From Chanos chanos (Eukaryota), in contig NC_044504.1 in the NCBI RefSeq assembly GCF_902362185.1, positions 33,092,702-33,156,701 of the forward strand: a stretch of DNA of 64,000 bases, given 5' to 3'. Within the stretch, counting starts at the first letter, position 1, and each line of letters opens with the position of its first letter. A program made the translations under genes and the position numbers. This document shows, one piece after another, positions 23,320 through 64,000 of this stretch. The notes beneath the pieces were generated by a model that was given only the letters and a program-made list of their open reading frames with translations, was not told the DNA's origin and ran no database searches.

Positions 23320-24720
23320 ATGCTTGTGTTTGGCCTTCAACAAAACTCTTGTAGAAAGTCACGAATTGAGGAATGCATATCTGACTGTTCCCAAACAGAA
23401 ATTGGCAGCATCACCTCCAGGACCATCAAACTGAGCACCGGCACTCCACAGGGCTGTGTGCTCAGTCCGCTCCTGTTCACCCTGCTGACCCACGACTGCA
23501 CAGTATCATCCACCTCCAACCTCATCGTAAAGTTTGCTGACGACCCTACATTGGTAGGCCTCATCAGCAACAATGATGAATCTCTATACAGAGCAGAAGT
23601 GGACCAACTAGCAGCGTGGTGCAAAGTCAGCAACCTCTTCCTAAACATAGGGAAAACTAAGGAGGTTATCATTGACTTCAGAAAGACCAGCACCCACCAT
23701 ACCCCCCTGACCATCGATGGTACGGACACAGAGTCAGCAGCTCTAAGTTCTTGGGAGTGCACATCACACAGGACCTCTCCTGGTCCTCACATGTCACTGC
23801 GCTCTCCAAGAAGGCCCAGCAGCATCTCCACTTCCTGCGGCACCTGAAGAAGGCGAGTCTCCCCCATCCATCCTCACCAAATTCTACAGAAGCACCATAG
23901 AGAGCATTCTGACCAGCTGTATCTCTGTCTGGCATGGGAACTGCAAAGCCTGGGACCGCAAGTCCCTACAGCGGATAGTGAAGACAGCTGAAAAGAGCAT
24001 AGGAACTGCTCTCCCATCCATACAGGCCATCAGCATCGTGAAGGACCCAACCCACCCTTCCCACGGCCACTTCACCCCCCTACCCTCTGGCAGGAGGTAC
24101 CAAAGCATCCATGCTGCCTCCTCCAGACTATGCAGCAGTTTCTTTCCTCAGGCTGTAAGGTTCCTCAACAGCTTGAACACTCTCTGACCTCTCCTTTGCG
24201 CAATAAACTGCACAAATGCACCTTTGAACAATCAACTGCACAATCAATTGCACTAACACCCCAAACAACTCACCTACCTGCACAATGCCAATGCTGTTGC
24301 CAGTAATTCACTGTCCGTGTCAGGTGTATGTCTGTGGGTGTTATGTCCTGTTATGTGTAGGTTTGTAATATGTAGGGATTTTTTTGTATGTTGTAGAAGT
24401 TTTACTTTTTAATTACTTAGTACTTTTTCTTTACCCAGTACTTTCTGTCTTTGCTCGGTGCTTCTGTTTTACTTACTCAGTACTTCTGTTTTACTAAGTA
24501 CTTTCTGTTGTCGTGTTTATTACCGCCCCCCCCCCTCCCTTTTTTTGTTTTTGTTTACCCTCACCTCAGTATTAATTGTGCGTTATTTATTATTTTATGT
24601 GGTATTTATTTCTTGTTTGTTTTATGTGGCACTGTGGTCCTTGTGTAACGCAATCTCGTTCCCCTGTATGTATGAGTCATGCATATGTGGAAATGACAAT
24701 AAAAGCAGTCTAAGTCTAAG
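23320..24720 (+). mobile_element. Rex1/Babar-like LINE 3' portion (RT C-terminal half plus 3'UTR with tandem repeats)
   Basis: ORF 23320..23847: LSTGTPQGCVLSPLLFTLLTHDC...IVKFADDPTLVGLISNNDESLYRAEVDQLAAWC...LNIGKTKEVIIDFRK. C-terminus ...LCSSFFPQAVRFLNSL (23978..24187). The 3'UTR has tacttagtactttctg-type tandem repeats and ends gacaataaaagcagtctaagtctaag. Confidence 0.6.
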
Positions 24721-25449: not shown

Positions 25450-25750
25450 AAATGCCTACATTTATTCTCATATCCTTAAATTTATCACCTGCGACGTTTT
25501 AGTGAAAGTACATGAGAGTGTCTGTAGGATCATGGTTATAAAATTGATGATCTTGGTGAGGCTGCCTTCGAGGCCATTCTTGAGGAGGACCGTGTTCTTG
25601 AACAGGTTTTTTTGATACCAGGTGTCAAAGAAAGGTTTGGATCAGATAGAGTAGCACAAACACCTATTAGATCAGAATGTCTTTGTCTGATGCTCCTGAC
25701 TCAGAGATGGAAAAGAACAGATAAAATGAGCGGTATAGGACCATCTGCAT
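25450..25750 (-). pseudogene. Relic of a CALHM-like exon 2 3' end (paralog D). The rest of the gene is deleted.
   Basis: 25540-25700 aligns with the 3' coding end of paralog F exon 2 (55990-56120: ...ggtttggatcagatagagta...). It carries multiple stops. The cognate upstream module is at 26030-26650, with only about 250 bp between them. Confidence 0.4.
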
Positions 25751-27032
25751 ATCGGCCACAGACAACAAATGCTCTCAACTTGAGAGGAGGAACATACAGT
25801 GTTTACAGATTTTCCATTTAATCTTTATATTTATATATTGGCTAAGTTCCTGCTCTGTGTCTTTAAGCCTATGGTTAGTGTTTACTAAGGTGCTCCTGAG
25901 GTGCATCTTAATGCATTCCCACAGATATTTAAGTAACAGGATTAAAGTAACAGGATTAAGTAACATGACCTGTTATAAACATGATAACATGATTTGTTAA
26001 AATGCCTTTGACCTTGGCTGCCCTCCGTAGATAGCTGCTATCTGTGCTCATGAGTGGTCTCCATGAATGAAGCCATGTTATGTGATTATCAGCTAATGTT
26101 ACACTGGGACTATTTTGAACTACTTATAATGTATTTTCATATTTGCCGTGTCCATGCAGTCCTTCCACTTTCACAGTATAAATGTTAGCAGTTAAGTGGC
26201 TACTTCTCTCATAAAGGAAAGCTATGTGAAACTCAAAAGCAATACAAGAAAACAGTCAATACCATTTTAGACTACAATATGATGTTTTTTCTGTTATTAA
26301 AGATCAAAATCATTTAAAGGGTATTTTAAAGGGAGAGACAAAATGGGCAAGGCTGTGGAAAAGGTTTGGGGGAAATACTGTGGTAAACAAAGGAGGATGG
26401 TCAGCACATAAAAAGATACACATTGGATCTCCTCCAGAATCTCGGAACATATATTTTCACCCCTTATTTTGTAGATTGTACTTACCACAAAAGATGAGCA
26501 TAGGCAAATACAATTTCCTATGCATTTGTTTCTAAGAACATGTTCTGCTTTTCAGCTGTGCCCGTGGTTACCGAGCTTCCTGTCTCACGATCTGAAATGT
26601 TTTAAAATATGCATTTGGCCCACCATTTATATCAGCTAATTAGGAGTGTTCTCCACTGAACAAAACAAAAGTTAACACACAAGCACATAAATGTGCCCAT
26701 CCACAACGAATGACTGATTCTCACATTTACTGCTCAAATTTCAATATAGCAATACTGTGAAATATCAGAATTTGGAAGAAAACTTTTGCATTCACATATC
26801 ATTACCCTATAATGTGTGCTAGCAGAATTATGTGGTATGGGACAAGAATTTTGTATTATCCCCTTCAGTAAATCTCAACTTCCTTTCAAGAGAGAAAAAA
26901 TCTATTTTCTTCATTTTAATATGCAATTTACCTAATCACCTAAAGACAAAAACACAGATAAGAGCACTGTAATAAAGTTGTATTTATTAAATGTTGCTAT
27001 ACCAATTATAAAACATTCCACAATTAGCAGTA

Positions 27033-30458: not shown

Positions 30459-30785
30459 TCATATGTCTTGTTCATCAGCAGGCTGATTTTGTGGATTAGC
30501 GTAATGATTTTGTGGATTAGTGGACTGGTTTCGTTGATCAGTGGGTTGTTCATGTTGATCAGTGGGAGGTGAGATTTGGGTTCTCAGTTTCCTCATATGG
30601 GGTACACAAATACTTTTGACCTGATCTTGGGCACATTGTTTTAATTTCTTGATCAGATAGGAATAGGGCTCTTTCTGTAGATTGTCCTCATATATTATCT
30701 CGTAATATGGTTTACACCTCAAGTACATGCAATAACCCATGATCCCTGCAATGGAAATTATTTCTAGGATGCACAAGCCAATGAC
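30459..30785 (-). CDS. Divergent CALHM-like exon 2 (paralog E). No convincing exon 1 found. Possibly partial or a pseudogene.
   Basis: ORF 30459..30797: ...KVIGLCILEIISIAGIMGYCMYLRCKPYYEIIYEDNLQKEPYSYLIKKLKQCAQDQVKSICVP...PTDQHEQPTDQRNQSTNPQNHYANPQNQPADEQDI. This is a TM4 plus KPYY..YED helix plus a QPTD-type tail. Acceptor tttttgaAG|GTCATTGG mirrors F/G. No FxCPC/FIDGDW exon was found in 30.8-31.5 kb. Confidence 0.35.
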   Translation of the reverse strand, partial: VIGLCILEIISIAGIMGYCMYLRCKPYYEIIYEDNLQKEPYSYLIKKLKQCAQDQVKSICVPHMRKLRTQISPPTDQHEQPTDQRNQSTNPQNHYANPQNQPADEQDI

Positions 30786-31619
30786 CTTCAAAAACATGAA
30801 TAAACATGGTTATGAATTCTGTAAAATCAATTGGTAAATGTATTTTTTACCTGTTATTCCTGTGATTTCACTGAGGGCAATAAGGTTCTTCTGAGAGTTC
30901 ATCCTTTCAATTAGTATACATTTTTAGCTCTAAAATGTCATACATACTATCCGTGCTATGCAATATTCAGCCATGCCTGTTTAACAGTGTAATGGAATCT
31001 GATGGTAAAAGAAAAACTATTGTATCATTTAGGACCAGGCCCATTGGTGAAATTCAAGCATTTCAAGTGTATTTATCACACATTTCAAATTGACCACTGG
31101 CCTAGTGAAGACACAAAACTTCTCTGGGCAAACTTGCTAAATAGCAGCAATAAAAGGTAAAAGCGAATCAAATATTGAAAGTGATATTTTAATATAAGTG
31201 TGTATTACATCAGTATAGCTCACTGTTGTAAGACCAAGTTTAGCACATTCTATCATAATTTGGGTCAGAAAACATGAAATCATATCAAATTTGATACTGC
31301 TGGTATTAGGTGTGAAAAAACATGCAGTCATCCTTTTGTTGTGCTTCATAGTAGTTTGGTCCTGGTCACTTCCCAACACAGGAAACCTGTCAAAGATGTA
31401 AGTATTGCACCACGATACATTCCTCTCATATATACTGTGAGAAATATAAGGTTCACTTCTGTCTTAACAAACTTAACATGCATAAATATCCAAACCATGA
31501 ACCGCTAAAGGACAAACTATGAAGCAGCCCCATACCTTTACCCATTGAGTGTTTGTTGTTTGTTTGTCCCAAGAGAAGAAAAGGATGGTGTTGGATTAAA
31601 ATTAGGAAAATATTGACAT

Positions 31620-40080: not shown

Positions 40081-40954
40081 ATGAACGACGGCACAGAAAA
40101 AACTAAATGGCGTTTTGTTGCTCTCTCTAAGCTCAAACAGCATGAGATGAAAGTTGAATGGGACAAATGTCAGCATGAAAGTGGTAAATTAAAATCTGCC
40201 AATGATTTTCTCCGTTCTGAATATAAGAAACTGAAATCTGCTAATGCCTCTCTGTGCTCTAAGAATGAGAAGCTCAAAAAAAAGAGAGAAGCAGGTCCAT
40301 TTTTGCAGCTGCAGTGCAGTTGGCAATCCGCCAGCTCAAGGCAACACCCAGACTTGCTCTTATGGCGATGTGATAAACAACATCGACAGAGGCGCCTCCA
40401 CAGGGTCAAGCTCAGAGTCAACTCCTGTGTTATTTCCCTTGTACTCATGGGAAGAGCTAAAACATTTGGCAGAAATGGTGGATGACCCAAGGGCTTATGA
40501 TGTCAACAAATATGAAGAGGAACAGGAGGGGGATGACTCTGATGACGCACAAATAGCCCTGAGGCAGGTTGAAACAAGATCCCAGAGGATTGTGGGGCCT
40601 ACAGGAGAGGTGATTCTGGATACAGGAGGACATATATCTAGACTAGCCAGCCAAAGGTATGTCCCTCTATCACCAGACATGGTTGAGAAGTTTTCATCAA
40701 GAGTGCCACCTCCCAGAAAGGGAGGAACGAAGACATGGGAAGAGCTCCAAAGGCTGAAAAGAATTTACAATTTACACCCTCTTGATGGATGTCAAATCTT
40801 AGCTGTACATCAAAGTGAGCAGCAAGCTGAGCAATTGCAGGATGCAGTGAATCATAAACTAGACACAGACGACGAAAGTGGTGCATGGAAGAGGATTCAA
40901 ACCTGGTGTATGGAAAATGCACAGCTGACAGTGGACTGGAAGAAAATTCTCTAA
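40081..40954 (+). pseudogene. ERV gag-like region (coiled-coil N-terminus), frameshifted
   Basis: Overlapping ORFs 40081..40485 and 40244..40954. It sits immediately upstream of the protease in retroviral gene order. Confidence 0.5.
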
Positions 40955-41533: not shown

Positions 41534-42334
41534 TTGCGAAATTTAACTTTAACCCAATTAGCTGATCATCCAGTTTGGGCTACAGATAAGAATGATTGTG
41601 GGTGTTTGAAAATGCAACCTGCCACCTTCACAGGCTCCCCACCACCTTCAGCTAAACAATATCCCTTAAGTATACAGGCGGTCCAAGGAATTCTACCAAT
41701 CGTTAAACAGCTGGAAGAGAAAGGCATTCTGATTCAAATCTTCAGCAGCAGTAACAGCCCCATTTGGCCAGTCAAAAAAGCAGATGGAAGCTGGCACCTT
41801 ACAATTGATTACCGAGAAGCCAATAAACACATTGACAAGCTTACACCTCTTGTAGCAGACCCATCTACCATCTTTAAGGTCATCAAACCATCACATCAAT
41901 GGTTTTCAGTCGTTGACATGGCTAATGGCTTTTGGTCAGTACCACTCAGCCCAGATGTACAACCTTGGTTTGCGTTCACAGTCAAAGGGCAGCAGTATAA
42001 GTGGACACGCCTCCCACAAGGATTCCATAATTCACCCACTGTGTACCATCAAGCACTAAGAAAAGATTTAGGGAAATTGACAGATGTGTCATCCACCGTG
42101 GTTCAGTATGTTGATGATGTATTAATAGCATCTGATGACAGAGAGCAACATGAGCAGGACGTGCTGAAGCTGCTAGACCATCTAGCGAAGCAAGGTCACA
42201 AAGCCAGTCTGAAGAAGGCACAGCTCAGTCAAATAGAGGTAACCTATTTGGGTCAAAAGATTTCACAAGGTCAACGAGAAATCACCCAGATAGGAAAACG
42301 GCTGTTAAATCATCTCCGCTACCAACAACGGTGA
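41534..42334 (+). pseudogene. ERV reverse transcriptase domain
   Basis: ORF 41534..42334: PIWPVKKADGSWHLTIDYREANK...LPQGFHNSPT...QYVDDVLIAS (YVDD box). Confidence 0.85.
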
Positions 42335-43400
42335 GAGAATTAAGATCTTTTCTTGGTCTTTGTAATTACAACAGGACATGGGTAGCTGGATATGCTGAGC
42401 TCACTCAACCTCTGAATAACAAACTCAAGGGTAATCCTCATCCAAAGGATCAGCTGACATGGACTAATGAGGAGAAGCAGGCCTTTGACAATGTGAAACA
42501 GGCTCTGATAACAGCTCCCGCTTTGGGAATTCCAGACACCTCAAAACCATTTGTTCTCCACGTCCATGAGCATCAGGGGTACATGACAGCAGTTCTAACT
42601 CAAGAATGGGGAGATAAAGACAAACCTGTGGGTTATTTCTCAGCTCAGTTAGACCCTGTGGCACAAGGCATGGGACCATGTCTTAGGGCAGTGCAAGCAA
42701 CATACTTGGCAGTTCATGTAACAGGATCCCTTGTCCTAGACCAGAAACTGACAGTCAGATGTCCTCACGCTGTACACACTATCCTCAGTATAGGACAATC
42801 TTCACAAGTGACAGCAGCCAGATGGACAAAATGGTCAGTAGCTCTGGAAATGCCAAACATCACAATTGAGAAAGCCACTCCCAGTAACCCAGTTACTATG
42901 ATGACACCTCCCAACGATCCTGTGAATGACGAGCATGACTGCTCCAAGGTAATTCAGGCATCATTGGAGGGTGACGAACACATCAAAACAACTCCGCTAC
43001 AAAATCCTGACTTTTGTAGGATTTTTGTAGGAAAATACTGTTTACTGATGGGCCTTCCATGACCATGGAAGGAAGATGGAAAGCAGGATGGGCGGTGACT
43101 TCAAGTCATGAGGTCATGGCAAGTGGTTCAGCTCAACAAGCAGAACTCCATGCACTTACTGAAGCACTAAAAGTGGCAGAAGGAAAGACAGCAAACATCT
43201 ACACTGATTCCAGGTACGCCCTCTGGGTGGTCCATGATTTTGCAGCCCTGTGGAAACAGAGAGGATACCTGATGGCCACAGGCACACCCATACGCAATGG
43301 CAAAGAAGTAGCTCAACTGCTGGACGCTTTTAAATTACCAGATGTTCTCGCAGTACTCAAGGTTAAAGCACACTCCAGACAAGAGGACGAGGTCAGTAAG
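42331..43400 (+). pseudogene. ERV RT connection plus RNase H
   Basis: ORFs 42331..43062 and 43059..44240 (N-terminal part). It has the RNase H motif ...ANIYTDSRYALWVVHDFAALWKQRGYLMATG.... This is gamma/epsilon-retrovirus-like (compare MLV YTDSRYAF). Confidence 0.75.
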
Positions 43401-44706
43401 GGAAATGCGATGGCAGATGAAGCTGCTACAGCTGCCGCAAGGAGGGGTGATGAAAAACGTGATGAAAAGAGTAATGAAAACTCTGACAGCAGCAATGTTG
43501 ACTCAGCTCCAAACGACATGGATGAGACTTTTCATGGTGGCATCACGAGAACGCCCACCAGCAGAACTGAGGAATTGCGACATGTCATTGTCCGCGATCT
43601 TAAACACATTTCTGAAGTGCAAGACAGTGCAAGCCCAGAGGAGCAATGGACTTGGATGGAGAATGGTGCAAAGCTGCATGATGACTTAGTATGGAGGAAA
43701 GGTGACAAGGTCATTGCCCCTTCCTGCCTCTTGTCATATCTGGCTCAGCAGATAGATAGCGTCGGCCACATTGGACCCAAAGCATTGGTCTCAAGATTTT
43801 CTTCAATTTGGTATAACCCTCTCTTTAGAGCGGACGCCCAGAAAGTTAAAGACACTTGCATCATCTGTCAACAGCGTGATCCTTCTCCCGGAGCCCCAGT
43901 TCCAAAGCTTCGACCAAACGCGCCACCTGGACCTTTCAGACATCTGCAAGTCGATTACATCACCTTGCCAAAGATAAAAGGGAAACAGGACGTCCTAGTC
44001 ATCGTTCCAGATGGATTGAAGCATATCCAACAAAGAAGGGGACGGCCTCCCACACAGCCAAAGTGCTGGCACAGGACATCATTCCCCATGGGGACTCCCT
44101 GGCACCATAGACTCAGACCAAGGAACACACCTCACAGGAAGGGTGTGTCAGGAAGTGTGCCGACTGCTGGGTGTCCAGTGGTCATTACATTGCGCTCACC
44201 AATCATCTGGAATGGTGGAAAGAGCCAATGGCATTCTTAAAGCACGACTGTCTAAAATGCACTCAGAAGGACTTTCATGGGTTGATGCTCTTCCTATGGC
44301 TCTTTGCAGCATGAGAGCGACAGCCAACCAAATAACAGGACTCAGCCCTTTCGAAATCATCACAGGACGACCAATGAAGCTTCCTGGTACGCCAGATCTA
44401 CGCGAAGCTGACGTCCACCTTCTCTCTGACTCTCTTTTTCAATACTGTTGCGAGCTCACTAAAGGTCTCAGCAGCAGAAGCACAGGTTAGGGAGGCCTGG
44501 GGAGAGCCATTCTTTAATACCAGGACAGTGTGTCATGATTAAGAAATTTCCACGCTCATGTGTAGAACCAAGATGGGAAAGGCCATTCCCAGTCTTATTA
44601 ATTACACCATCAGCGGTTAAAGTACAGGGCAGGAAACGTTGGGTTCATGCTTCACATTGTAAACAAATTAAGGGTGTTCAAAGTGTAGGAGCCAGCGGGA
44701 AGAACT
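43400..44706 (+). pseudogene. ERV integrase (HHCC zinc finger, DDE core, C-terminal SH3-like domain), frameshifted
   Basis: HIGPKALVSRFSSIWYNPLFRADAQKVKDTCIICQQ (zinc finger). The DDE core is split across ORFs 43059..44240 and 44143..44490. The C-terminal domain is at 44500-44706: ...PGQCVMIKKFPRSCVEPRWERPFPVLLITPSAVKVQGRKRWVHASHCKQIKG. Confidence 0.7.
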
Positions 44707-46469: not shown

Positions 46470-48170
46470 CATCAACACCTTACACTGGAGAGTGTTGATG
46501 TACACTAGCACTGAAAATGTGTATAGTATAACCAACACTTCTTGCAATATATAACCAAGCTTAGAGTTCATTTAAAACTGGTGAAATGGCTCTGTGAATG
46601 GAGGTGTTCTCTGTTATAAATGTACATTTACTCTACAAACATTTCCTGCTTTGGATCAACATGAGAAGAAATAAAGCTGGGAACGAGTTAGCAAAATTTT
46701 GACAGTAATGAGAAGCTGAGAAATTGTACAAATCAGCTGCTGTCAAGGCAAAGACACAAACAGTATATATTGATGTTTTATATAAAACATGAATATATAA
46801 AATCTTATCTCCTTCAAACAAAATATGTGGTGAGTGTTTTTTATTTTGAAGGCAGGCCTGTGATTCCTTTCTTTGATAGTGTTAAAAGAGCTCGGCATCT
46901 GTGAGAATGATGCCGGTCACTTGTCTGTGTTTCATTAGTAAAGTGAAAGTAAAATATGGCTACTTTGAAAACTCAGCAGTCTCTCTGGAACTTGAGAGCA
47001 TACATGACAGTGGGTCTGCTCTCTGCATTTAAAAAGACCATAAAACAGGATCCATTTTGGAAACACTGCTGTAATTCCACATAAAATGTACAGTGGATAA
47101 ATAGCATCAGTAGATTCAATTAAATGTATGTGACCCTCCCCAACAATTTTTACTAAGCATTACAAACAAACACAGGGCATTCCACATAGTTCAAACCACA
47201 GACTTTATCTTGTTTGCTTTGTTTTCATCACTTTTGAGATTGAGGTATGGAATCCCAAGGTTGTGCTGTGTCTTCTTGTCAAGGAATTTACAAAAAAGGT
47301 CACTTGTTCAGACTGTCAGAAGATTTGCAGTTATCCAGCATATCACCAGCTATTAAACAGATGGAGCCAAGGGATGAAGGCATTTCATGGTTTTGAGTTT
47401 GTTTCATTTCATTTTGTTTTTATGACTATCATGCTATATGTAGCATGCTGCACTGTGACACGCTTCTTTAAAGTGAATATATGCTGGTTTGCATGCCATC
47501 CAAGTTCTGTGGGATTTTTCTGTTTAGTTCTTTTAAAATAATGATACTGCATGTATTTATTGAATTATCCAGTGTAATCCGTACCTTACCAAATGAGCCC
47601 TTTTTCCTGCCCTAAAACCCACTGACAGCACATAATAGCATACAAAAATGTTATACTAAGCCTTTTCAAAAACCCCAGACTGTCGTGACATGCCTGTTTT
47701 TCTCTCACATTGTTTTTCTGTTTCTTTTTCACTGACTTCCTTACAACGCTGGTGAAAATGTTTCTTTCATTTTGTTTTTTTTGTTGTTGTTTTTTAATGA
47801 CAGATTGCTTCTTCATTTTTCACAAGGCTCTCAAGCACACTGTTTTTGTTGGCATGATCAGATATTTTATCATATATTTTGTGGATATCACATTTCAAGA
47901 ATTATCACAAATTATTCATGCTGCAATATTTCCTCAAGGCGAATATATGTGGACTTGCATTCTACCCAAGTTCCTTATTTTTAGTGTTTTGTTGTTTTTG
48001 GTTATTTCCAGAATTATATCACTGACAGCTCAGGACAACTTATATATTTAATCTTAATCATCGGTTTCCTATGACAAAGGAGTACTGTAACTACAATAAC
48101 TGCTATCATAAACACAGAAATTAGTCCAGTCAGATAACAGTACAAAACAACATACAAAATAAGCAATAAG
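46470..48170 (+). repeat. Segmental duplication, copy 2 of 7450-9230
   Basis: See the copy 1 entry. Confidence 0.7.
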
Positions 48171-53300: not shown

Positions 53301-55606
53301 AATGAATAAATAAATGTGTCCTCTACCTATAAAATTACAACAGATTTAAAAGTCGTTTGACTAAAAGTTCTACTTATTTAGAATAGAAAGCAATACAGTT
53401 GAGTCTCTAAAAAATATTTTGTTGTGGATATTTTTAGATATTTGCTTTGGTTCAAATAATTCAAGAATGCTTGTAATTCATAGTACATTCACCATTTTGT
53501 ACACATAATGAATACATAAAATTCATCCATCCTTAGTTCTTTGTTAATACTAAAACATATAATTTTATGAAGCAATAAGACTGATTTGTTCAACAGTCAG
53601 AAGACTATAGTTTCCTTCCTCAAAATGAAGAAAGTGAGTATCTTTGTCAGACACAGGGCAGCAAAAAGTACCCTTCATATCCAGAGTGGTTAGAGTCTCC
53701 TGTTGCCAGGTATGTGTTCTTGGAGTAGAGTGGTTGATTGACTAGTCTGTTATTCAGTATCTGTCTTTGTCCTACCCACATTAAGCAGCATTCATGTGAA
53801 AGTGCTTAAGAACATCTACAGGATAACTATGACACTAGTGGTTCTTCTAATGATGCTGCTGCTGAGGTGAACTCACCCATGAAGGATTGAAATATAACAT
53901 ATCCAAATCCGTCTCCACTCTCTGGCTGCTCAAAACATGCCATCTCTCTCTCAAATTCACTTATTTACCAATTTATTTTGATTCAAACTTGGGCCTACTT
54001 CAAAACTTTAAAGATGCAAAACTTTTCTCTCAGCTCTCATGAGTCTAAAACACTGAACCACTCACACTGAATGACTCATCACTTCTCTGCCATTTTCCCT
54101 CTGCTTATCCTCTGATGCAATCATCTAATAATCCATCCTTCTTCCAGGACGTAACAAGACAAAACAGACAAGAAGGGGAGACTTGACTGCGGAGAAAAGG
54201 CATCTATTAAATGTGATGTCCTTGACACAGAGAAGGAAGACAGCACAGCTGAACTTAATGTGTATACTTATTTTTTTAAAGAAATTATTATACTGGTTTG
54301 TTTTTAATGCAGACGATTGTTTGGAACCACCCATATGTTGTTTGCCTGTACTGTTGTTTTGATTATATTGCAACGTAACAAAGGGCCCTCGCGAGGCAGC
54401 TATATCATAAGGCGTGAAAAGTATTAATTTTGTTAGTTACACTAAAAAGCATGAGCCGAACTGTCAGTAGGCTACTAAAAGAAGGAGTTTCAAAATTACC
54501 ATTGAAACCTCAACATGAAAAGACACCAACTTTAGCACTAAGGCTAATGAACAACAGCAGCCAAACAGCGTCACTGACTACAGCCACAACATCAAGAACT
54601 ATGACAACGACGATGAGGACGATGATGAGGCTGTAATGTCTCAGTCCAAGACCAGTGATCAACAACAGCAACAAGAGAAGTCGCAGGATGAACTCATCTC
54701 CTCAGACCCAGAATTATGGGGACCCATAACAGAGCAGGTCAGTGAAACAACTATCCATCAAGGCCCTGCAGCCTTCCAAAATCGAGCTGCTAAATATGCA
54801 GCTTCTTTGCAGGACTTTGGTAGCAGAAGTAGAACACGTTCACTTACTAATGATTTACTGCATTGCTATGGTAGCCCAAAATCACAACTTTATTGTCATA
54901 ATGTTCTAACTTTTTTTCTCATTAAATTACGACTTTGCTCTCATAACATTACGACTTTTTTCCTCCTTAAATTACGACTTTCGTCTTGTAATATTACAAC
55001 TTTTTTTATTCTCATAATATTATGACTTTATTCTCCAAATCTCAGATTTCCCCCCCCCTCAATGCTCAATGTGGCCCTAATACTCCGTAGTAGAAAACTG
55101 ATTTGCATATTGGAGTGAAGTTCATTTTCATTATGTTCAGTTTATTGTTTATTATTTGAAGTTAGAATGGTTTAATAGTCTTGGAATTATATTAATATTG
55201 CTATGAGGTTCCGTTAGATTTGCACAGAAACAGCCAGTAGAAATGTCCTTCAAAGGGCTACTTTTTACTTTTATACTTTGTGTACATTTTAGAGCCTGTA
55301 CTTTTTCACTTTTACTTGTGTAAAGAAGTTGAATCAGTACTTCTACTTTTATCATAGTCTTTTTTACATAAATATCTGTACACTTCTACTTGAGTAAAGA
55401 ATGTGTGTACTTTTGCCACCTCTGTTTTTTAAGTATTCATCTCACAAATATTTCTGTTCTTTACAAAAATAGTGTTTTGAATCTTTCAGGAAAATTGTTT
55501 TTTTTCTGATATAGTTCTGTGTGCTAGTAGAGGAACCTGATAACTTCTTTGTGAGATATGGATTAACAAAAGAATACAGAGTTGAGGTAAATGAAAAATG
55601 CTGAAG

Positions 55607-55612
55607 TTTATT
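55607..55612 (-). promoter_or_regulatory. Candidate poly(A) signal AATAAA for paralog F (3'UTR of about 370 nt)
   Basis: Plus-strand tttatt lies within the conserved 3'-flank module (gaagtttatttatgac). The same module and hexamer recur downstream of paralogs A/B/C, G and H. Confidence 0.4.
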
Positions 55613-55978
55613 TATGACATAAAAGTGGTGGTCATCTGATCACAAATATATGAAAAACAAGCAGGCAATGTAAAAAAACTCCTTCCTGAGAACATTACAG
55701 TTATCCACATGCAGCCCTGGTTACAGTTAATTCAATGTATGCCCTATATAATTTGTACAGATATTATAAGTATGAAATATTCTATATCCAATCACATTAC
55801 ATGATCAACACTGTACAGTTTTAGAATCAGTAATCACTAATAGACACATCCAGAATAATTTGTTCTACTCTCTGTTTAGTCTACTCTCTATTTGTCCTTT
55901 AAATACCTACATTTAGTCTCTAAACCAAAAGCTCACCTAGAGTACTCCAGTGAAAGTACATGAGAGTATCTGTGATCA

Positions 55979-56353
55979 TCATTGTAGAAGTGATGTTCTT
56001 GATGAAGTTGCTCCATAGTCCATCCTTGAGGTGGACTGTGCCCTTGAAGAGGTTGTTTGAGGGATGGAGGTCAAATGAAGGTTTGGATCAGATAGAGTAA
56101 CCCATACATCTGTTAGATCAGTGTGCAGATTTGGGGAATCAGAGGGCTGTGAAATTTGATCTATCAATGATTCACAAATCTTTTTGGCCCGTGCTTTGAC
56201 TAACTCTTCTAATTTCTCCTTCACAAATTCATCAGTCCTTTCTTGTTGATAGTCTTCATACAGAGTCTTGTAATATGGCTTGAAACGCAAACGAAAACAA
56301 GAAATCACCATCCACATGACTGATACCACTGCCAGAACGCTCAATCCGATGAT
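55979..56353 (-). CDS. CALHM/FAM26-like channel, paralog F, exon 2 of 2 (TM4, C-terminal helix, acidic/Ser-Thr tail)
   Basis: ORF 55979..56371 (-). Acceptor tttttcaAG|ATCATCGG (plus-strand cttgaaa at 56354-56360). Reading frame is continuous with exon 1: ...YKAISH|IIGLSVLAVVSVMWMVISCF RLRFKPYYKTLYEDYQQ.... This matches CALHM TM4 followed by the C-terminal helix. Intron is about 171 bp. Confidence 0.7.
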   Translation of the reverse strand: MIGLSVLAVVSVMWMVISCFRLRFKPYYKTLYEDYQQERTDEFVKEKLEELVKARAKKICESLIDQISQPSDSPNLHTDLTDVWVTLSDPNLHLTSIPQTTSSRAQSTSRMDYGATSSRTSLLQ

Positions 56354-56524
56354 CTTGAAAAAGATTAACAAACATTGTTATAAACTCCATTTGTAAATGC
56401 ATTTTGGCCTATTATTCCAGGCATTTCACAAAGGATTATTATCTAATCACTTTTCAGTCCTGTAAGTCTCTTTGATTCAGTCATTACGAACTTCAGTCAT
56501 TATGTAGCTATTAAATATACTTAC

Positions 56525-57001
56525 ATGTGAAATGGCCTTATAATGTCTCAGCATTGCAAGCTCCTCAGCAGAAGGTTTCTCTTTACAAGTGATTTGCTCT
56601 AGCCCAGCTGTGGCATTACAGTTTGTGGTTACAAGACACACAAACCAGTCCCCATCGATAAACGCTGTGACGATCCATAATATCCCAGCAGTGAAGGCTT
56701 TAAGGATACATCTGAAGATTGTACAGTAGTTCTTTTTGATGTGGTTTATGCACTGATATTTGACACAGATTCTGATGGACAGCCCATCAATGATGAGTGT
56801 AATCAGGAAAAGTATGATGAATGGTACAAGCATGTAAACAAAGCAGACTGCATAGTTTTTCACTGGATCACATGGACATTCAAATTCCAGTTTGAACAGA
56901 TATTGAAATATGACAAAAAGAATAACAAATGCAAATGCACTGCCTGTTAGTAATGCATTCAGTACTTTGGTGGTGAACTCTGGATGCTCTGGACGCACCA
57001 T
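56525..57001 (-). CDS. CALHM/FAM26-like channel, paralog F, exon 1 of 2 (N-terminus, TM1-TM3)
   Basis: Long ORF 56477..57001 (-). It has the motif FKLEFECPCD (compare FDFNCPC in CALHM1), a VPFIILFLITLI TM2 segment, and ILWIVTAFIDGDWFVCLV (compare VVWVAVTLLDGKCFLCAF). GTAAGT donor is on the minus strand immediately after the codon for ...AISH (plus-strand acttac at 56519-56524), so the exon ends at 56525 in phase 0. Confidence 0.72.
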
Positions 57002-57769
57002 TTTGATTAATCAGTGTTCAGTAATATGTCCTGAAAATGTTGTCTACAAGTTCTTAACTGTGTACAAGTTGTGTACAACCGCTAGACCAAAATAATAAAT
57101 AAATAAATGAAAGCATAAGACAAACAGAAATCTGTTTCATACCCCAAGATTTATCACAAAACTCTGCAAGTTGCTGTGACAGTCCCTGTTCATGTTCAGC
57201 ATTCTTGAAATTAGTTCATGCACTTTTTGTTAATGAAATAAATGGTATGAAATACAAGATAAGGTTTAGAGAAGTGGAATTTACCAGCAGTGCAGAACGT
57301 TTCCTTAAAATCCAATATTAGTCTGTAAGGAAAAAATCATCCGAAATAATCGAACTACAAAATGCACTTGCCCAAGAGAAACCTGTCAGAAACTATTTAG
57401 ATGGTCCTGAAGCATTGTAAGGACTGTGAATTAAATAGTCCTAAATCCTGATTGGATGAAAGACATGTGAAATTGAACAGATAATGTTCTGCACAGGAGA
57501 CTACTTACAGACAGCGCAATCTAAAATGTTTTGAGCTGCTTTTATATTGTCCATGTATACTTCAGAGGAGGAGCATGCAATGTTTGCTGCAAACATTCCA
57601 CTAACTCCTCTGCATACTCCATGCACTGAGGTGAAAAAAAGTAAACAAACAGCTTTGATTCTTTGATTCTCTTTGTCCACGAATAGCTTCATCCCCGCTC
57701 TGTGAACTACACCTTTGCATTGTGTTTTTTAGGCAAGTGCATCTCAGTTCATTCTCACAAATATTCAAA

Positions 57770-58260
57770 CCAAGGCCTCATCTTATATGTCTCTGTTTAA
57801 AAATCTACAGTCTCACCTCTATGATTAAAAAAAGTACTGACAACAGACTGGAGAAAGCAGAGACCAAAAATGGACAAGACTGTGGGAAAGGTTGGGGTAA
57901 TACTGTGGTAAACAAAGAAAGTCTGCTCCAGCATCTGAGAAAATATATTGTTTGGTTCTTATATTGTAGACTATATTTAACACCAAAGGCAAGCATGTCT
58001 GAAAAAATGTCCAGTTTATTTGTTTGTCAGAATATTTTTTGTTTTTCAGCTGTGCCTGTAGTTACGAAGCTTCCTGTCTCATGATCTAAAATGTTTTAAA
58101 ATGTGCATTTGCTCCATCAGTTATATCAGTTTAACCTATTCTCATGAGGGTCTAACCACAGGCCTTTGTCTTCTTAACCTTCTGTAGCTTCCATACCTTC
58201 TAGAGATAGTAGCTATCTGTGGAAATGGGCAATTTCTATGAATGAAGCAATGTGTGAGTT
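57770..58260. promoter_or_regulatory. Conserved upstream module about 0.75 kb 5' of the paralog F ATG (candidate shared promoter or enhancer, or a co-duplicated element)
   Basis: catcttatatgtctctgtttaaaaatct...ggacaagactgtgggaaaggttgggg...agctatctgtgg...atgaatgaagcaatgtg. The same module recurs at 4430-4700 (A), 9970-10100, 14990-15130, 19756-20110 (C), 26030-26650 (D) and 60480-60800 (G). Confidence 0.4.
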
Positions 58261-58511
58261 TTATATGTAGAATTTACTACATATATAGTGCTTACAAACT
58301 TTTTTCATACTTTAATTTCATATTTTTTCATCTAGCACTTCCTTCTTCACCCCTTCTTTTAAGGAGTTGCTATATACCTTTCTATGTTTCTGACTATATT
58401 TCTGAACCATATTTCTAACACTTTACTGTTTGTGTTGATAAAGGCCCTGACAGTTTCTTGGCATATTTTAACACAAGGATGCAGAGTTGGAGTAGAGAAC
58501 AAATCCTGAAG

Positions 58512-58517
58512 TTTATT
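58512..58517 (-). promoter_or_regulatory. Candidate poly(A) signal AATAAA for paralog G
   Basis: Plus-strand gaagtttattcatagggc lies inside the conserved 3' module (ggagtagagaacaaatcctgaagtttattcat). Confidence 0.35.
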
Positions 58518-59010
58518 CATAGGGCAAAAAGAGACAAGGTAGAGAGGAGACAAGAGACAGGACAACAAAAATAGAAAGAAAAAAAACAAGCAGTTAACAA
58601 ATAATCTGGGCAAAATTCTTCTTGAGTTAATCATTAGTCCACACATAGCCCTGACACTAATACACTAATTTTGTGCACATGTTATAAATGCTTTAAATGC
58701 ATCCAGTCACAGTACTTTATCAATAACTAAACACAGTTTTATGAAGAAGTAATCACTTATTGAGGAACATGTACAAACTGATTGTTTGAGCATAGAAAGA
58801 GGCTCTGTGCTTACAAACAAGGTGAGCTTACTTTTCAAACCCATAGCATTGAAGTTTACTCTCCGCACTCAGAGTGTCTTGCTTCTGACACGTATTCTTG
58901 TGCTACATTCCAGGCGTAGTTAGTACATTTGTCCTTTAAATTCTTTAGTCCCAAAACCATGAGCTGATCACGTAAGGCATTCCAGTGAAAGTACGTGAGT
59001 ATCTGCAGAT

Positions 59011-59379
59011 TCATGATTGTAGAAGTGATGTTCTTGACGAGTTTGCCCCATAGTCCATCCTTGAGGTGGACTGTGCCCTTGAAGAGGTTGTTTGAGGGAT
59101 GGAGGTCAAATGAAGGGTTGGATCAGATAGAGTAACCCATACATCTGTTATTTCAGTGTGCTGATCAGAGGGCTGTGAAATTTGATTTATCAATGATTCA
59201 CAAATCTTTTTGGCCCGTATTTTTGCTAACTCTTCTAATTTCTCTTTCACAAATTCATCAGTCTTTTCTTGTTGATAGTCTTCATACAGAGTCTTGTAAT
59301 ATGGCTTGAAGCACAAACGATAACAAGAAATCACCATCCACATGACTGATACCACTGCCAGAACGCTCAATCCGATGAT
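59011..59379 (-). CDS. CALHM/FAM26-like channel, paralog G, exon 2 of 2
   Basis: ORF 59011..59397 (-). The acceptor context is the same as in paralog F (caatccgatgatcttgaaaaag on the plus strand). Protein: IIGLSVLAVVSVMWMVISCYRLCFKPYYKTLYEDYQQEKTDEFVKEKLEELAKIRAKKICESL... in frame with exon 1. Confidence 0.7.
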   Translation of the reverse strand: MIGLSVLAVVSVMWMVISCYRLCFKPYYKTLYEDYQQEKTDEFVKEKLEELAKIRAKKICESLINQISQPSDQHTEITDVWVTLSDPTLHLTSIPQTTSSRAQSTSRMDYGANSSRTSLLQS

Positions 59380-59550
59380 CTTGAAAAAGATTAACAAACA
59401 TTGTTATAAACTCCATTTGTAAATGCATTTTGGCCTGTTATTCCAGGCATTTCACAAAGGATTTTTTCCTAATCACTTTTCAGTCCTGTAAGTCTCTTTG
59501 ATTCAGTCATTACGAACTTCAGTCATTATGTAGCTATTAAATATACTTAC

Positions 59551-60051
59551 ATGTGAAATGGCCTTATAATGTCTCAGCATTGCAAGCTCCTCAGCAGAAG
59601 GTTTTTCTTTACAAGTGATTTGCTCTAGCCCAGCTGTGGCATTATAGTTTGTGGTTACAAGACACACAAACCAGTCCCCATCGATAAATGCTGTGACGAT
59701 CCATAGTATCCCAGCAGTGAGGGCTTTAAGGATACATCTAAAGATTGTACAGTAGTTCTTTTTGATCTGGTTTATGCACTGACATTTGGCGCAGATCCTC
59801 ATGAACAGCCCATCAATGATTAACACAGTCAAGAAAAGTATGATGAATGGCACTAACATGTAAACAAGGCAGACTACATAGTTTTTCATGGGATCACATG
59901 GGCACTCAAATTCCATTTTGAACAGATACTGATACACTACAAAAAAAAACACAAGTGCAAATGCGCTGCCTGTGTGTAATGCTTTCATTGCTTTGTTACT
60001 GAAGTGTGGATGCTCTTGATCATGATGCCCTGGTTGCTCTGGATGCACCAT
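59551..60051 (-). CDS. CALHM/FAM26-like channel, paralog G, exon 1 of 2
   Basis: ORF 59503..60051 (-): ...YQYLFKMEFECPCDPMKNYVVCLVYMLVPFIILFLTVLIIDG...ILWIVTAFIDGDWFVCLVTT...RHYKAISH followed by GTAAGT donor (plus-strand acttac at 59545-59550). About 90% amino-acid identity to paralog F. The N-terminus is about 8 aa longer (HHDQEHPH insertion). A downstream alternative Met (MKALHTG) exists. Confidence 0.72.
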
Positions 60052-61984
60052 TTTGATTAAAAGAAGTGTTCACAGCTTGCTCCTGAAAGTGTTACATGCA
60101 AATAATTAATATTGTTTCAAAAAAGCACAAGTCAAAATGAGATTTGTCAAATCTATCAGTAATTATCAGAACTATCAAGATTTATGAGAAAGCATAATTC
60201 ATATTGTTATAAAAGACATCCAGGTCTTGCTCAGTATTCCATAAAGAATTCCATGCACTTTTTTATGAGCGATTGATAGCATAAAAGCATAAGGTGAGGG
60301 ATGACAGTAAAGTTCACATGGACAATAAAAATCAAGCTTGAGTAAGCTCTGGAAAATGATCAAAATACAGAACTGAAAAATATACTTGCCCCGAGGAAAC
60401 ACTTCAAGAGCCTTTCTGCTGTAAAATTCAGATGGTCCCGAAAAAATGTTCTAAGTACTAGGAATTAAATATTCCCGATTGAGAGATGGCAAAAGACAGA
60501 GCAAAATGAGCAATAGGAGACCATGTGAGGGCCCAGTCCAAGAATACTTTGTTCTGCTTTTATGCTCTCAACCTGAGAGGAGGAGCATGCTATCATAGGT
60601 GCTATCTGTGCAGATGAGTGCTCTGCATGAATGAGGCCATGTGTCAGCTATTTGTACATTGGGACTACCTGTTTTAAACTACTTATACAGTATTTTCATA
60701 TTTGGGGTTTCCATTCAGTGCTTCTCATTTCAAAATTGTATGAGTGTATGAATTTTAGCAGTTAGGTGGCTATTGCTATCAAGGGGGATAGTTATGTGAA
60801 AATCAAAAAGGGATACAAGAAAACTGTTTCATGCAAGAATAGGCTAGATACATGATGAAGTGTGTACAAAGGCAAAGTGTCAGTAACATTTGGCAAGGTT
60901 TTAAGCAGCAAGTTGTAGTCTGACAATGTTCTTGAGCAGCTTCTGATGAAAGCATTTTACAGTCATGATCCCAAAAAATATTTGTTAGCTTAAAGTGTAA
61001 TGATGTGATCCAGGTGTGTAATGATGTGATGTGGTGCAGGTGTGGTCAAGAAATTAGCGCTGTATGTAGCTATGGTGTGGATATAATAGACTGATAAAAG
61101 AATTAGATTTCTTTTCAAATAAATTCCTGTGGCAACACTTTCACTAAGGGATCCTTAGATCAGACTGGATGGAGGCTTTCACTTTCATTTTTAGAGTGCA
61201 GTTTAGGCCAGTCTCCTGAGGTTGTCTAGTGTGACCTCTGGTGGCACAAAACAAAACTGTAAAACGATATAGTGCAGTGTGACAGTACAGTCAAAACCAA
61301 TGTATCTCCTTCCACACTTTTTCCAACATGTCCACTACCAGTTAAACAAGCTAATGCCTTAAAAACCACACATCTGAAATTCAGGGATAGATCTTCTGGC
61401 ATCAAGCCAACAACAAAAAAGAGAGACATATCTTAGCCACCTGGTTCCACCTGTTCATGATCTAGTTACTTAAAAGCACAGCCTGTGTTCGTGGTTTCAT
61501 ATAAGGCATTTAAACCTATAAGACAATGCTATATATGCCCTGATCCAATCAACAGATCCTGATGCAGTGGCAACATCTTCAACAACGACCTTAATTAGAA
61601 GCTCATGCACCTACTGCAATACAGTCGTAATCCGAAAGTTTCTTTGCCTTTTCACTGAAACATTCTTGAGTGATCAACTCCAAGTAATGAGAGTAAGTTG
61701 TCTTGATGAAGGACCAGTGGACCTTCTCTTAGCTGTTTGGCACCTTGTAGATTGCTCATAGCTTCCCACAAGTGCATGAAGATACATGAAGAGGTTCTTG
61801 TTTCTAGGAACAAAATACAAAGGAAAAATGCAATGGCATATCTAGATTCTTTTTCCCTGAAGAAAAAAGGGCAAAACATCAGTGAATGGTGGCTCCAGCT
61901 GACGACCCTGCAGCTGACCCAGTGTGCACCGGCAGAGGAGCGGCAGGCAAAGATGCCGAGCAGTAAGAACATCACCTGTACAAC

Positions 61985-62130
61985 ACACTGCATTATATGC
62001 TTATCTGATTTTACTGCCTGCGATGGACTGGTGACCTGTCCAGGGTGTTTCCCTGCCTTTCGCCCAATGAACACTGGGATAGGCTCCAGTACCCCCTGTG
62101 ACCCTAATTAGAGTAAGCATCTTAGAAAAT
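61985..62130 (+). repeat. SINE-like dispersed repeat (copy 2 of 53160-53300)
   Basis: Pairwise similarity. The spurious ORFs 61652..62074 (-) and 52985..53236 (-) both read ...GKHPGQVTSPSQ... across it. Confidence 0.5.
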
Positions 62131-63479
62131 AAATGAATGAAATTAATTTCTCTGCAATAATATACTTATAACTTAGCTGTAAATATAAGCCATATGCACT
62201 TACAATTTTGATGCAAGTGGTTCATAAGCAGGTGAAAATATACACAGCTTAATGTGAAAAATTCTAATTTCTGTGAAATGCACCCTCAAGTTGCCCCAAA
62301 CTGGCACCATTTATGTTTCCCTACATGCATTGTTCCTGTTTATTTGAAAACTCTGACCTTCATCTGTGACAATGACAACATTACACTTACTGACAATTTT
62401 TCCATTTTTATATAGAAAGGATGTGCTGGAGGCCTCTATTGCTGTTGCTGCGTGGCAGGCACTTGTCCTCTCTCCCGCACCACTGGGAGAGGTTTCCTCT
62501 CTCAGTTAACCAGCCTCCCCATCTGTCTGTCAGAGAGCTCCCGAGGCTTCGGATAGGTTGCTCCGCCAGCCATGGAATTTCCTCTCTTCCTACGACGAAT
62601 ACTGTGCAGTTGTTCCTCGCACCTTTCCTAATCGAAAGGCTCAGTGACTTTGAGGGCTTGATCTTCAACCTTGCCCATGTCATCAGCTCATCAAGGCACC
62701 TGTGGAGCCTTGCTGTGCATGGGGCTGTCTGTAGGACGCTTGTGACGTCATCCATGTAGCTTCTCAGAGGAGGGAGTCTGTTGCCAGATGGTAATTTCAG
62801 GCCTCTGACTGAAATTCAATTTAGCAACTTTGTACAATCATTTGAAATAATTGTCCATTTTCCTGTCAGCCTTTTACAAGTCTTGTCATTTTAGATGTAA
62901 AGCCAGCCTATTATTCAGCAAAATTATGCTACTCAGTATTTTCAGTTAATTGAGGATTTTCATTCACAATGTGAAATCACTGTGTGTTGACAAAAAGAGA
63001 CCCTAGAGAGCCAGGCAGAGGGCAATGCCTTAACAGTGTATCATGTTTAAAGTGAAAGTAAAACTTATTTTTCTTAATGCAACGGACTGTTTTAAAGTTT
63101 CAGTGCACACAAGATAGTGTATGCTTTCTGCATGTTGCATGTTGCCATGTTTTTTGACGTACGGCTATGATTTCACATAAAAATGTAAAACCGGGATACA
63201 CTGAATAGAAGATAAACTGTATTACAAAACTGAAAGGAATTTGTATGACCCTTCCAAAGATCTTTCACGTAGAGTTTGAAACACTTAAAAAAAACTTTAC
63301 ATTTTGTTCATGTTGTTTTTTGTTTAGTTTTGTTTTGTTTTACCAGGTCAGACATGTTATTCTGAAGTTGTGGTAAATCCTGTTGTCGAGGAACGTGTAA
63401 ATATTCATCTCACAGATGCTTCTGTTCTTAAAATAATTATGTTTAGCATCCTCGACTAAAATACATTCTTTCTGATATA

Positions 63480-64000
63480 GTTCTGTGTGCCAGTAGAGGA
63501 ACCTGATCGCTTCTTTATGAGACATGGATCAACAAAAGAATGCAGAGTTGGAGTAGAGGGGAAATGCTTAAGTTTATTTATAATGCAAAAGTGGTGCATT
63601 TTCAAAAAGAAGCAGGCAATTTAAAAAGCTCTTTGGCAAAAATCTTTCCTGATTACATCACATTTATCTACACACAGCGATAGGTACAGTTATTTAAACG
63701 TATGCCTTTGCAGTTTTTACATATATACATGTGAAATATTCTACATCCAATCACCATACTTGGTCAAAAAACGTACAGAAATAATCAGTAACTGTCAAGC
63801 ACATACAGGCTAATTCGTGCATTCTTAGAAAAACAGAGGGTCTTTGCATACAAAGTAAGTTAACTTATTTGTTAAGCCCAGAGCACCAGAGTCTACTCTC
63901 CATTTGTCCTTTAAATACCTACATTTAGTCTCTAAACCATGAGTTGATCACATAGGGCATTCCAGTCAAGGTACATCAAAGTATCTGTTGGATCATGACG
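63480..64000 (-). other. 3' UTR/flank of a further CALHM-like paralog (H). The coding part lies beyond the window end.
   Basis: 63480-63800 matches the 3' modules at 55500-55800 and 58440-58700, including gtttatttata (AATAAA on the minus strand). 63890-64000 matches 55870-55985, the region just 3' of the paralog F stop codon. Confidence 0.5.

Follow-up and report, generated by a model that had tools for sequence, protein, structure and literature searches.

Two intact and probably functional CALHM-superfamily paralogs in a tandem array of Chanos chanos, assigned to an unnamed fish and shark clade

Results

In a 64,000-nucleotide stretch of the Chanos chanos genome (RefSeq assembly GCF_902362185.1, contig NC_044504.1, positions 33,092,702 to 33,156,701; the whole stretch is hereafter called the window), two neighboring minus-strand genes, designated F and G, encode members of the CALHM (Ca_hom_mod) superfamily. 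CALHM proteins are large-pore channels for ATP release; the family is small, its structures were solved only recently, and half of its human members are still functionally obscure. We conclude, with a probability of about 0.8, that F and G are intact, probably functional paralogs in a head-to-tail minus-strand array, belonging to a clade outside CALHM1–6. Their membership in the superfamily is confirmed, the fold being predicted. Members of this clade are already present in public databases and recognized by Pfam; what is new here is that F and G add two CALHM-superfamily genes to this unnamed clade of fish and sharks.

Gene structures of F and G

Both genes consist of two coding exons with uninterrupted reading frames, yielding proteins of 283 (F) and 289 (G) amino acids (coordinates in Table 1). 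Exon 1 of F starts with the ATG at 57001, codes for the N-terminal helix, S1, the FECPC linker, S2, S3, and an extracellular loop with an NAT sequon up to the residues KAISH, and closes at a GTAAGT donor; exon 2, comprising S4, the C-terminal helix, and a Ser/Thr-rich tail, ends with a TGA stop at 55979–55981. The F intron lies directly before S4 and its 3' end reads ...TTTTTCAAG; the introns of F and G have the same ends (GTAAGTAT...ATCTTTTTCAAG). A first-pass annotation made from the sequence alone had described two intact two-exon genes of ~285 residues with identical splice contexts, and its intron boundaries coincide exactly with the present models. The family hidden Markov model (HMM), run over the six-frame translation of the whole window, matched all four exons (F exon 1, 56522–57001, E = 1.3e-52; F exon 2, 55991–56353, E = 2.9e-28; G exon 1, 59548–60012, E = 1.2e-55; G exon 2, 59026–59379, E = 4.4e-30), and found CALHM-like pieces on the minus strand only. 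The identity of about 90% previously assigned to the pair holds for DNA (90.4% over 1109 nt), but the proteins are only 86.8% identical over the aligned residues.

The phase-0 intron of F and G (ISH/IIGLSV, the slash marking the site) is homologous to those in the CALHM6-like genes of the mammal Galemys (SQSQ/VAGW), in the Megalops gene (LSR/VIGLG), and in the Danio aesculapii gene (LSQ/VAGLS). Judged from these sequences, the exon split of F and G is ancestral for the family, in agreement with the earlier view that they carry the family's exon split. This intron, placed where the ancestral family has it, led us to reject a retrogene or transposable element (TE)-captured origin of F and G.

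Family membership and predicted fold

With the Pfam profile Ca_hom_mod (PF14798; gathering score, 25 bits), F scored 74.6 bits (E = 8.8e-21) and G 81.2 bits (E = 8.3e-23), both far above the gathering score, and the matches spanned profile positions 26–245 of 252. A phmmer search against the PDB retrieved CALHM2 (E = 4.7e-8), CALHM6 (6.7e-7), CALHM1 (1.2e-6), CALHM5 (8.5e-6), and Caenorhabditis elegans CLHM-1 (1.2e-4), with CALHM4 appearing only at an E value of about 2–3. The AlphaFold2 model of G, built from a 61-sequence alignment (mean predicted local distance difference test score, 81.3; predicted template-modeling score, 0.67), consists of an N-terminal helix (residues 15–27), S1 (29–44), S2 (54–79), S3 (100–124), S4 (153–191), and a long C-terminal helix (194–235), followed by a poorly predicted tail. 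In a Foldseek search of the PDB with this model, the best 36 matches were all chains of CALHM1, 2, 4, 5, or 6 or CLHM-1, with a probability of 1.0, and the next match had E > 3. Hydropathy profiles of F and G also contain four transmembrane-grade peaks, so that model and profile together give the four-transmembrane layout that had been anticipated, with the C-terminal helix in addition. Altogether, the profile score, the PDB sequence matches, and the predicted fold all point to CALHM, as the first-pass annotation had claimed.

The hallmarks on which that claim was based (FxCPC, DGDW..C, and the fourth transmembrane segment followed by a C-terminal helix) are present in both proteins: each contains the FECPC and FIDGDWFVC motifs, four hydrophobic segments and then a long helix, a single N-x-T sequon (NAT) in the S3–S4 loop, and, by alignment to CALHM2, the four extracellular disulfide cysteines. 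A recent study defined 13 positions of a pattern shared by CALHMs and named nine of them in its text (eLife 2026, PMC13183375). Seven of the nine are kept in F and G. In CALHM2 numbering, these are Phe44 (Phe48 in G and Phe40 in F), Cys46 and Cys48 (Cys50 and Cys52; Cys42 and Cys44), Pro64 at the S2 kink (Pro68; Pro60), the S3 tryptophan Trp117 (Trp117; Trp109), Cys130 (Cys130; Cys122), and Cys162 (Cys147; Cys139); Pro68 and Trp117 of G are invariant in the 61-sequence alignment. Ile61 is conservatively replaced by Met (Met65; Met57), and Tyr56 is not conserved (Val60; Val52).

Relatives and position in the CALHM tree

Exhaustive searching of 1.84 billion cluster representatives with HMMER (E up to 0.001) yielded 295 relatives of F and G, the best being 41% identical. 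None of these 295 reached at least 50% identity, and F and G are therefore without a close annotated ortholog in this library, from which the proteins of the source species itself must hence be absent. The 30 matches that were looked up comprise 22 teleost and 3 shark proteins, one mammalian canonical CALHM6, and 4 unnamed Logan contigs. The teleost proteins span Elopomorpha, Osteoglossomorpha, Clupeiformes, Cypriniformes, Characiformes, Salmoniformes, Osmeriformes, and many percomorphs; they bear the labels "uncharacterized," "hypothetical," or "unnamed," or else wrong names taken from their low-complexity tails. The shark proteins are auto-named "CALHM2-like" or "CALHM6-like" by NCBI. Thus the earlier description of the genes as fish-specific is right in that the clade is restricted to fish among the 30 matches looked up, but should read teleost plus shark. 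Two relatives (P0019 and P0007) are uninterrupted full-length open reading frames (ORFs) on short Logan contigs, which look, as expected, like spliced transcripts; this bears on the family only, and not on F or G. Literature searches found no paper describing the fish and shark clade, and in one study the coverage of Ca_hom_mod is limited to a tally of its gains and losses across 20 species (PMC10768655).

F and G were compared with a canonical set composed of human CALHM1, 2, 4, 5, and 6 and chicken and fish CALHM1, with sequences taken from PDB alignments. They are about equally distant from all of these paralogs (16–23% identity to each), and for 147 of the 150 best matches the score to F/G exceeds that to every canonical CALHM (median over the best 150 relatives, 73 bits to F/G versus 33 bits to the best canonical CALHM). 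In neighbor-joining (NJ) trees (107 sequences, 190 core columns, capped Kimura distances, 200 bootstraps), the canonical set together with Galemys CALHM6 and one unnamed CALHM6-like sequence (P0101 and P0125) was split from F, G, and 96 relatives in 200 of 200 replicates. The shark sequences attach nearest to the canonical group, and F and G lie nearest to the Megalops and Prochilodus proteins with low support (46/200 with Megalops alone, 22/200 with both). The separate clade is thus well supported as an unrooted split, the root position not being fixed by the NJ tree. As far as these sequence comparisons go, F and G appear not to be orthologs of any of CALHM1–6, but members of an unnamed teleost and shark clade. 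The phylogeny that had been proposed with CALHM1–6 was accordingly obtained for CALHM1, 2, 4, 5, and 6, with F and G falling outside, and the suggested link to CALHM6/FAM26F proved weak, given that F and G are no closer to it than to the other canonical paralogs and lie outside the canonical group.

Mosaic divergence and selection

Divergence between F and G is unevenly distributed. Codons 1–88 show a synonymous divergence (dS) of 0.365 with a nonsynonymous-to-synonymous ratio (dN/dS) of 0.42, codons 89–159 a dS of 0.09 with a ratio of 0.13, and exon 2 a dS of 0.08 with a ratio of 0.60; the introns are identical at 167 of 171 positions (97.7%), and the flanks at 55–68%. Because the low dS and the near-identical intron contrast with the diverged 5' third and flanks, a gene-conversion tract of ~750 nt between F and G, from codon 89 to near the stop, is likely. 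It follows that the similarity of F and G overstates how recent their duplication is, and "recently amplified," the wording of the first-pass annotation, was too strong: the unconverted 5' third has a dS of 0.365, the converted tract one of about 0.09. The dN/dS ratio is significantly reduced both overall (0.45, p = 0.003) and in the unconverted region by itself (binomial p = 0.016). This synonymous excess argues for purifying selection on F and G, of moderate degree only. No sign of positive selection was seen, dN/dS being below 1 in all regions of the F–G comparison.

Proposed subunit and evolution of the array

Based on these data, each gene would encode a subunit with an N-terminal helix and four transmembrane helices, S1–S4, with the F-x-C-P-C linker between S1 and S2. 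Two extracellular disulfides would staple the loops, connecting Cys50 and Cys52, in either pairing, with Cys130 and Cys147 (G numbering); one N-glycosylation sequon is predicted in the S3–S4 loop, and a long cytoplasmic C-terminal helix would precede a disordered Ser/Thr-rich tail. By homology to solved CALHM structures, the subunits may assemble into rings of 8–11, in which the N-terminal helix and S1 would line a large, weakly selective pore for ions and ATP and the C-terminal helix would build a cytoplasmic ring. The array probably evolves by birth and death, with intact F and G standing beside decayed copies; in the window, F and G are the only intact copies seen, which fits such a process. 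Through gene conversion, F and G would have become homogeneous in the intron and in the regions for S3, S4, and the C-terminal helix, and would have stayed divergent in the N-terminal helix, S1, and S2. Heteromers are known for CALHM1/3 and CALHM2/4. Heteromeric assembly of the neighbors F and G is likewise conceivable, if speculative, because the pair is homogenized in the S3, S4, and C-terminal helix regions but differs in the N-terminal helix, S1, and S2.

A broader proposal, which we put forward tentatively and consider more likely wrong than right, is that F and G belong to a CALHM clade that is ancient among gnathostomes, lies outside CALHM1–6, is shared by sharks and all major teleost lineages, and is apparently missing in tetrapods. 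Such a clade would diversify through birth and death of genes in tandem arrays. Conversion would then keep the subunit-contact half (S3, S4, and the C-terminal helix) alike while the pore and gating half (N-terminal helix, S1, and S2) diverges, allowing heteromers with varied pores and possibly a lineage-specific sensory or immune role.

Weighing of the interpretation

Several observations weigh against intact, functional genes of a separate CALHM clade. The Foldseek template-modeling scores to CALHM/CLHM-1 chains, 0.41–0.63, are only moderate. The S2 tyrosine (Tyr56 in CALHM2, Tyr52 in CALHM1, and Tyr51 in CALHM6) is Val in F and G; this conserved CALHM residue touches the linker between S1 and S2, and mutating it alters gating. 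The aligned position is Phe in the relatives from Megalops and D. aesculapii (P0001 and P0003), and a Tyr placed one turn of the helix further along S2 is conserved in the F/G clade (Tyr64 in G; consensus of the 61-sequence alignment). Since Tyr56 is only one of the 13 pattern positions, its loss does not by itself exclude CALHM membership. The trees are distance-based and saturated, and were built without CALHM3, fish CALHM2–6, and an outgroup. Neighboring copies A and C are pseudogenes, so that decay is common in the array, and dN/dS values of 0.4–0.6 between F and G indicate moderate constraint from few substitutions. Expression, channel activity, oligomeric state, and F–G heteromers are properties that we infer, and for expression this also tells against functional genes. 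Moreover, the fold is no proof of channel activity, given that several canonical CALHMs show only poor conduction in standard assays.

Three other explanations were weighed against this background. If F and G were young duplicates that are not, or no longer, functional, their intactness would stem from recent duplication and conversion instead of selection. The decay of other units (a stop at codon 17 in A, a frameshift in C, and exon-2-only remnants), the ability of conversion to copy intact sequence between units, and the exon 2 dN/dS of 0.6 are all compatible with this. Nevertheless, the frames have remained open over 283 and 289 codons despite the dS of 0.365 in the unconverted part, where dN/dS is 0.42 (p = 0.016), the splice sites, start context, and poly(A) blocks are conserved, and all disulfide cysteines and key motifs have been kept; we therefore consider a non-functional pair very unlikely. 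The separation from the canonical group could instead be a long-branch artifact, F and G being fast-evolving teleost co-orthologs of CALHM4/5/6 (FAM26D/E/F). Mammalian CALHM4/5/6 are, as is well established, likewise tandem two-exon genes, and the Galemys locus has tandem CALHM6-like copies; the best canonical BLAST partner is CALHM5 for 55 and CALHM6 for 27 of the 150 relatives; NCBI names shark members "CALHM6-like" or "CALHM2-like"; and fish CALHM2–6 are missing from the NJ tree. Against this stands the split of CALHM1, 2, 4, 5, and 6 together from the clade in all 200 replicates, by which CALHM1 is closer to CALHM6 than F and G are, as do the even distances to the canonical paralogs and the median scores given above. 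P0125, the unnamed sequence resembling CALHM6, also groups with the canonical set and not with the F/G clade. Co-orthology with CALHM4/5/6 is thus decidedly improbable.

The array has also been viewed as a set of interferon- or infection-inducible innate-immune channels like CALHM6/FAM26F, amplified under pathogen-driven selection. Tandem birth and death with decayed copies in TE-rich DNA is typical of immune families, and the divergence of F and G is concentrated in the N-terminal third; an immune-synapse role is described for mammalian CALHM6 (PMC10068325). On the other hand, tandem arrays are a typical feature of non-immune families too, sensory ones among them; dN/dS stays below 1 in every region, and F and G have no specific kinship with CALHM6. 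Consensus sites of the interferon-stimulated response element (ISRE; GAAANNGAAA), the gamma-activated sequence (GAS), and NF-kB were all absent within 800 nt upstream of F or G in a motif scan, itself a weak test, and a single ISRE core lies upstream of pseudogene A and is not conserved. Nothing here supports an immune or interferon role of F and G, and we regard this explanation as unlikely. Intact, probably functional paralogs of a clade outside CALHM1–6 therefore remain our preferred interpretation.

Flanking regions of F, G, and unit H

Each of the two genes is followed by a 3' untranslated region (3'UTR) with a minus-strand AATAAA in a conserved block, as had been noted earlier, and the same holds for a third unit, H, at the window edge (Table 1). 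Because AATAAA occurs at 126 sites in this AT-rich window, the hexamer by itself is poor evidence for a poly(A) site, and it is the conserved context that counts. The block containing it (ATAAATAAACTT.AG) is common to F, G, and H and occurs in two older units: the G copy at 58468–58537 is repeated at 12382–12451 and 16892–16961 (the older units), and at 55563–55615 and 63531–63590. In blastn comparisons, 63398–63996 of H matched the F 3'UTR at 73–84%, and 55430–55808 of F matched the H 3'UTR at 73%. The H stop codon, placed by eye in analogy with G, is presumed at about 63993–63995; the window thus holds only the 3'UTR of H, with its coding exons beyond, and the array runs on past the edge as the first-pass annotation had stated. 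The ~3-kb periodicity that it gave applies to a single interval: the stop-to-stop spacing is 3032 nt between F and G, but about 4982 nt between G and H.

Upstream of the start codons, ~400 nt are homologous among A, C, F, and G, including the start context ATCAAAATGG and a GTGATAAATCTTG block. The latter is located at about 57155 (F), 60168 (G), and 3823 (A) on the minus strand, 113–155 nt before the ATG, and its equivalent in copy C is GTGAAAAATCTTC. With its TGATAA (GATA-type or TATA-like), this block could mark a core promoter, and we infer that the F upstream region acts as promoter. A 5'UTR intron, considered for the TTTTCAG/GA site ~35 nt before the ATG in F and G, was dropped; the site is not kept in A and C (TTTTAAACA). 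An S1/CPC-like relic is located ~230–350 nt before the start codon in G and A, and is partly deleted in F. Possible origins of the relic are an old duplication of part of exon 1 that became fixed in the repeat unit, or an alternative first exon that is now dead.

Table 1. Positions of F, G, and other features in the window (position 1 is its first nucleotide)
Feature	Position	Strand	Basis or remarks
Gene F exon 1, coding part (159 codons)	56525–57001	minus	ORF and splice donor read directly
Gene F intron (171 nt)	56354–56524	minus	GT..AG, phase 0
Gene F exon 2, coding part and stop (124 aa)	55979–56353	minus	
Gene G exon 1, coding part (167 codons)	59551–60051	minus	ORF
Gene G intron (171 nt)	59380–59550	minus	GT..AG
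Gene G exon 2, coding part and stop (122 aa)	59011–59379	minus	
Putative gene-conversion tract in F, codon 89 to near stop	about 55985–56737	minus	from mosaic divergence
Putative partner conversion tract in G	about 59015–59763	minus	
F 3'UTR down to conserved AATAAA (55607–55612)	55607–55978	minus	block ATAAATAAACTTCAG common to F, G, and H
G 3'UTR down to conserved AATAAA (58512–58517)	58512–59010	minus	
Unit H 3'UTR, AATAAA at 63573–63578	63398–64000	minus	blastn matches to F and G 3'UTRs
F upstream region	57002–57430	minus	homologous to upstream regions of G, A, and C (four-way alignment)
G upstream region	60052–60480	minus	four-way alignment; holds S1/CPC-like relic
S1/CPC-like relic upstream of G, ...LKLDFYCPCEL...	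60280–60396	minus	HMM, E = 0.0012; ORF 60199–60402
S1/CPC-like relic upstream of copy A, LKLDIKCLCDL	3934–4029	minus	position homologous to relic of G
Copy A	2888–3653 (unit to 3710)	minus	stop at codon 17
Copy C	17939–18682 (unit to 18729)	minus	frameshifted
Exon-2-only remnant	13296–13445	minus	family HMM
Exon-2-only remnant	30477–30788	minus	family HMM
Short tail fragment	25539–25682	minus	tblastn with G
Retrovirus-like/long terminal repeat pol region	41534–44490, 40244–40954	plus	RVT_1, RT_RNaseH_2, RNase_H, integrase zinc-binding
RVT_1 fragments, likely remnants of long interspersed elements (LINEs)	20659–21102, 23320–23847	plus	in GC-richer 20–26 kb stretch

Other units and surrounding DNA

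The array has a single orientation across the whole 64-kb window. Minus-strand ORFs at 2382–2897, 12841–13278, and 17510–17818, located 3' of older exon-2 homologies, encode Ser/Thr-rich low-complexity sequences with QNQPTD-type repeats, resembling the long tails of relatives in other fish. A block of ~700 nt upstream of F (57479–58175) also occurs at 9713–10374, 14740–15401, 19764–20066, 26334–26635, and 4413–4674; all six copies have the same orientation, each upstream of a CALHM-like unit or remnant, and none is found upstream of G. Either the block belonged to the ancestral repeat unit, or it is a TE that was amplified together with the unit. The pol region (41534–44490 and 40244–40954), split over several frames, probably represents an endogenous element that has degraded and that interrupts the array. 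Two nearly identical plus-strand ORFs of ~112 residues (8776–9111 and 47710–48051; M.FLFFTDFLTTLVK.FLSFC...), 39 kb apart, presumably represent a repeated element. Two ORFs at 61652–62074 and 62408–62755, considered as LINE fragments, had no Pfam match, and short blocks in the G–H spacer recur elsewhere in the window. The TE-rich surroundings reported before are seen elsewhere in the window (reverse transcriptase, RNase H, and integrase), but were not confirmed for the 60.4–63.3 kb spacer.

In Megalops atlanticus (CM032889.1, 10001–11037 and 15161–16267), the closest relative is accompanied by a second Ca_hom_mod gene 4 kb away, so that tandem organization characterizes the clade. The annotation of the second gene fuses a TCTP domain to it, and a TRIM-like RING/B-box/filamin gene is located on the other side.

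Comparison with known CALHM systems

This is an annotation and evolutionary finding, which opens no long-standing question and will not surprise a specialist. An additional, widespread fish and shark clade would extend the CALHM family tree and supply structure–function work with natural sequence variation in the gating region (N-terminal helix, S1, and S2), one example being the missing S2 tyrosine. Annotation would also gain, many relatives being now mislabeled as "proteoglycan 4-like," "golgin...," or "samkC" because of their long repeat tails.

Among proteins of known structure, human CALHM2 (PDB IDs: 6uiv and 6lmu) is the best PDB sequence match of F/G and one of the top fold matches. CALHM2 and F/G have in common the FxCPC linker, a proline in S2, a tryptophan in S3, the two disulfide pairs, and a C-terminal helix following S4. 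At about 20% identity, F/G are nevertheless not orthologous to CALHM2: their S3–S4 extracellular loop is about 20 residues shorter, Tyr56 is replaced by Val, and where CALHM2 has its C-terminal region, F/G have a Ser/Thr-rich tail. Human CALHM6/FAM26F (PDB ID: 6ytv) has the same fold (Foldseek E = 1.4e-5; root-mean-squared deviation, 5.2 over 217 columns) and, in Galemys, the same phase-0 intron before S4, and the mammalian genes also form a tandem cluster; however, at 22% identity it is no closer to F/G than CALHM1 or CALHM2. Human, chicken, and zebrafish CALHM1 (PDB IDs: 8gmp, 6vam, and 7dsd) resemble F/G in FxCPC, the S3–S4 sequon, and the four transmembrane helices with a C-terminal helix. 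The CALHM1 motif LLDGKCFLC and FIDGDWFVC of F/G have DG-x-x-x-x-C in common with the aspartate aligned. The identity is 23%, and fish CALHM1 joins tetrapod CALHM1 in 200 of 200 replicates, away from F/G. The nearest counterparts are the unnamed Ca_hom_mod proteins of fish, such as those of M. atlanticus (KAG7463547.1, P0001; 41% identical), Prochilodus (KAI4898117.1, P0002; 41%), and D. aesculapii (XP_056321278.1, P0003; 35%), with Heterodontus XP_067865697.1 (P0091) as a shark example. Their tails are variable and of low complexity, in many relatives forming much longer repeats than the short Ser/Thr-rich tail of F/G, whereas the Megalops and D. aesculapii genes have the same two-exon structure and intron site as F and G.

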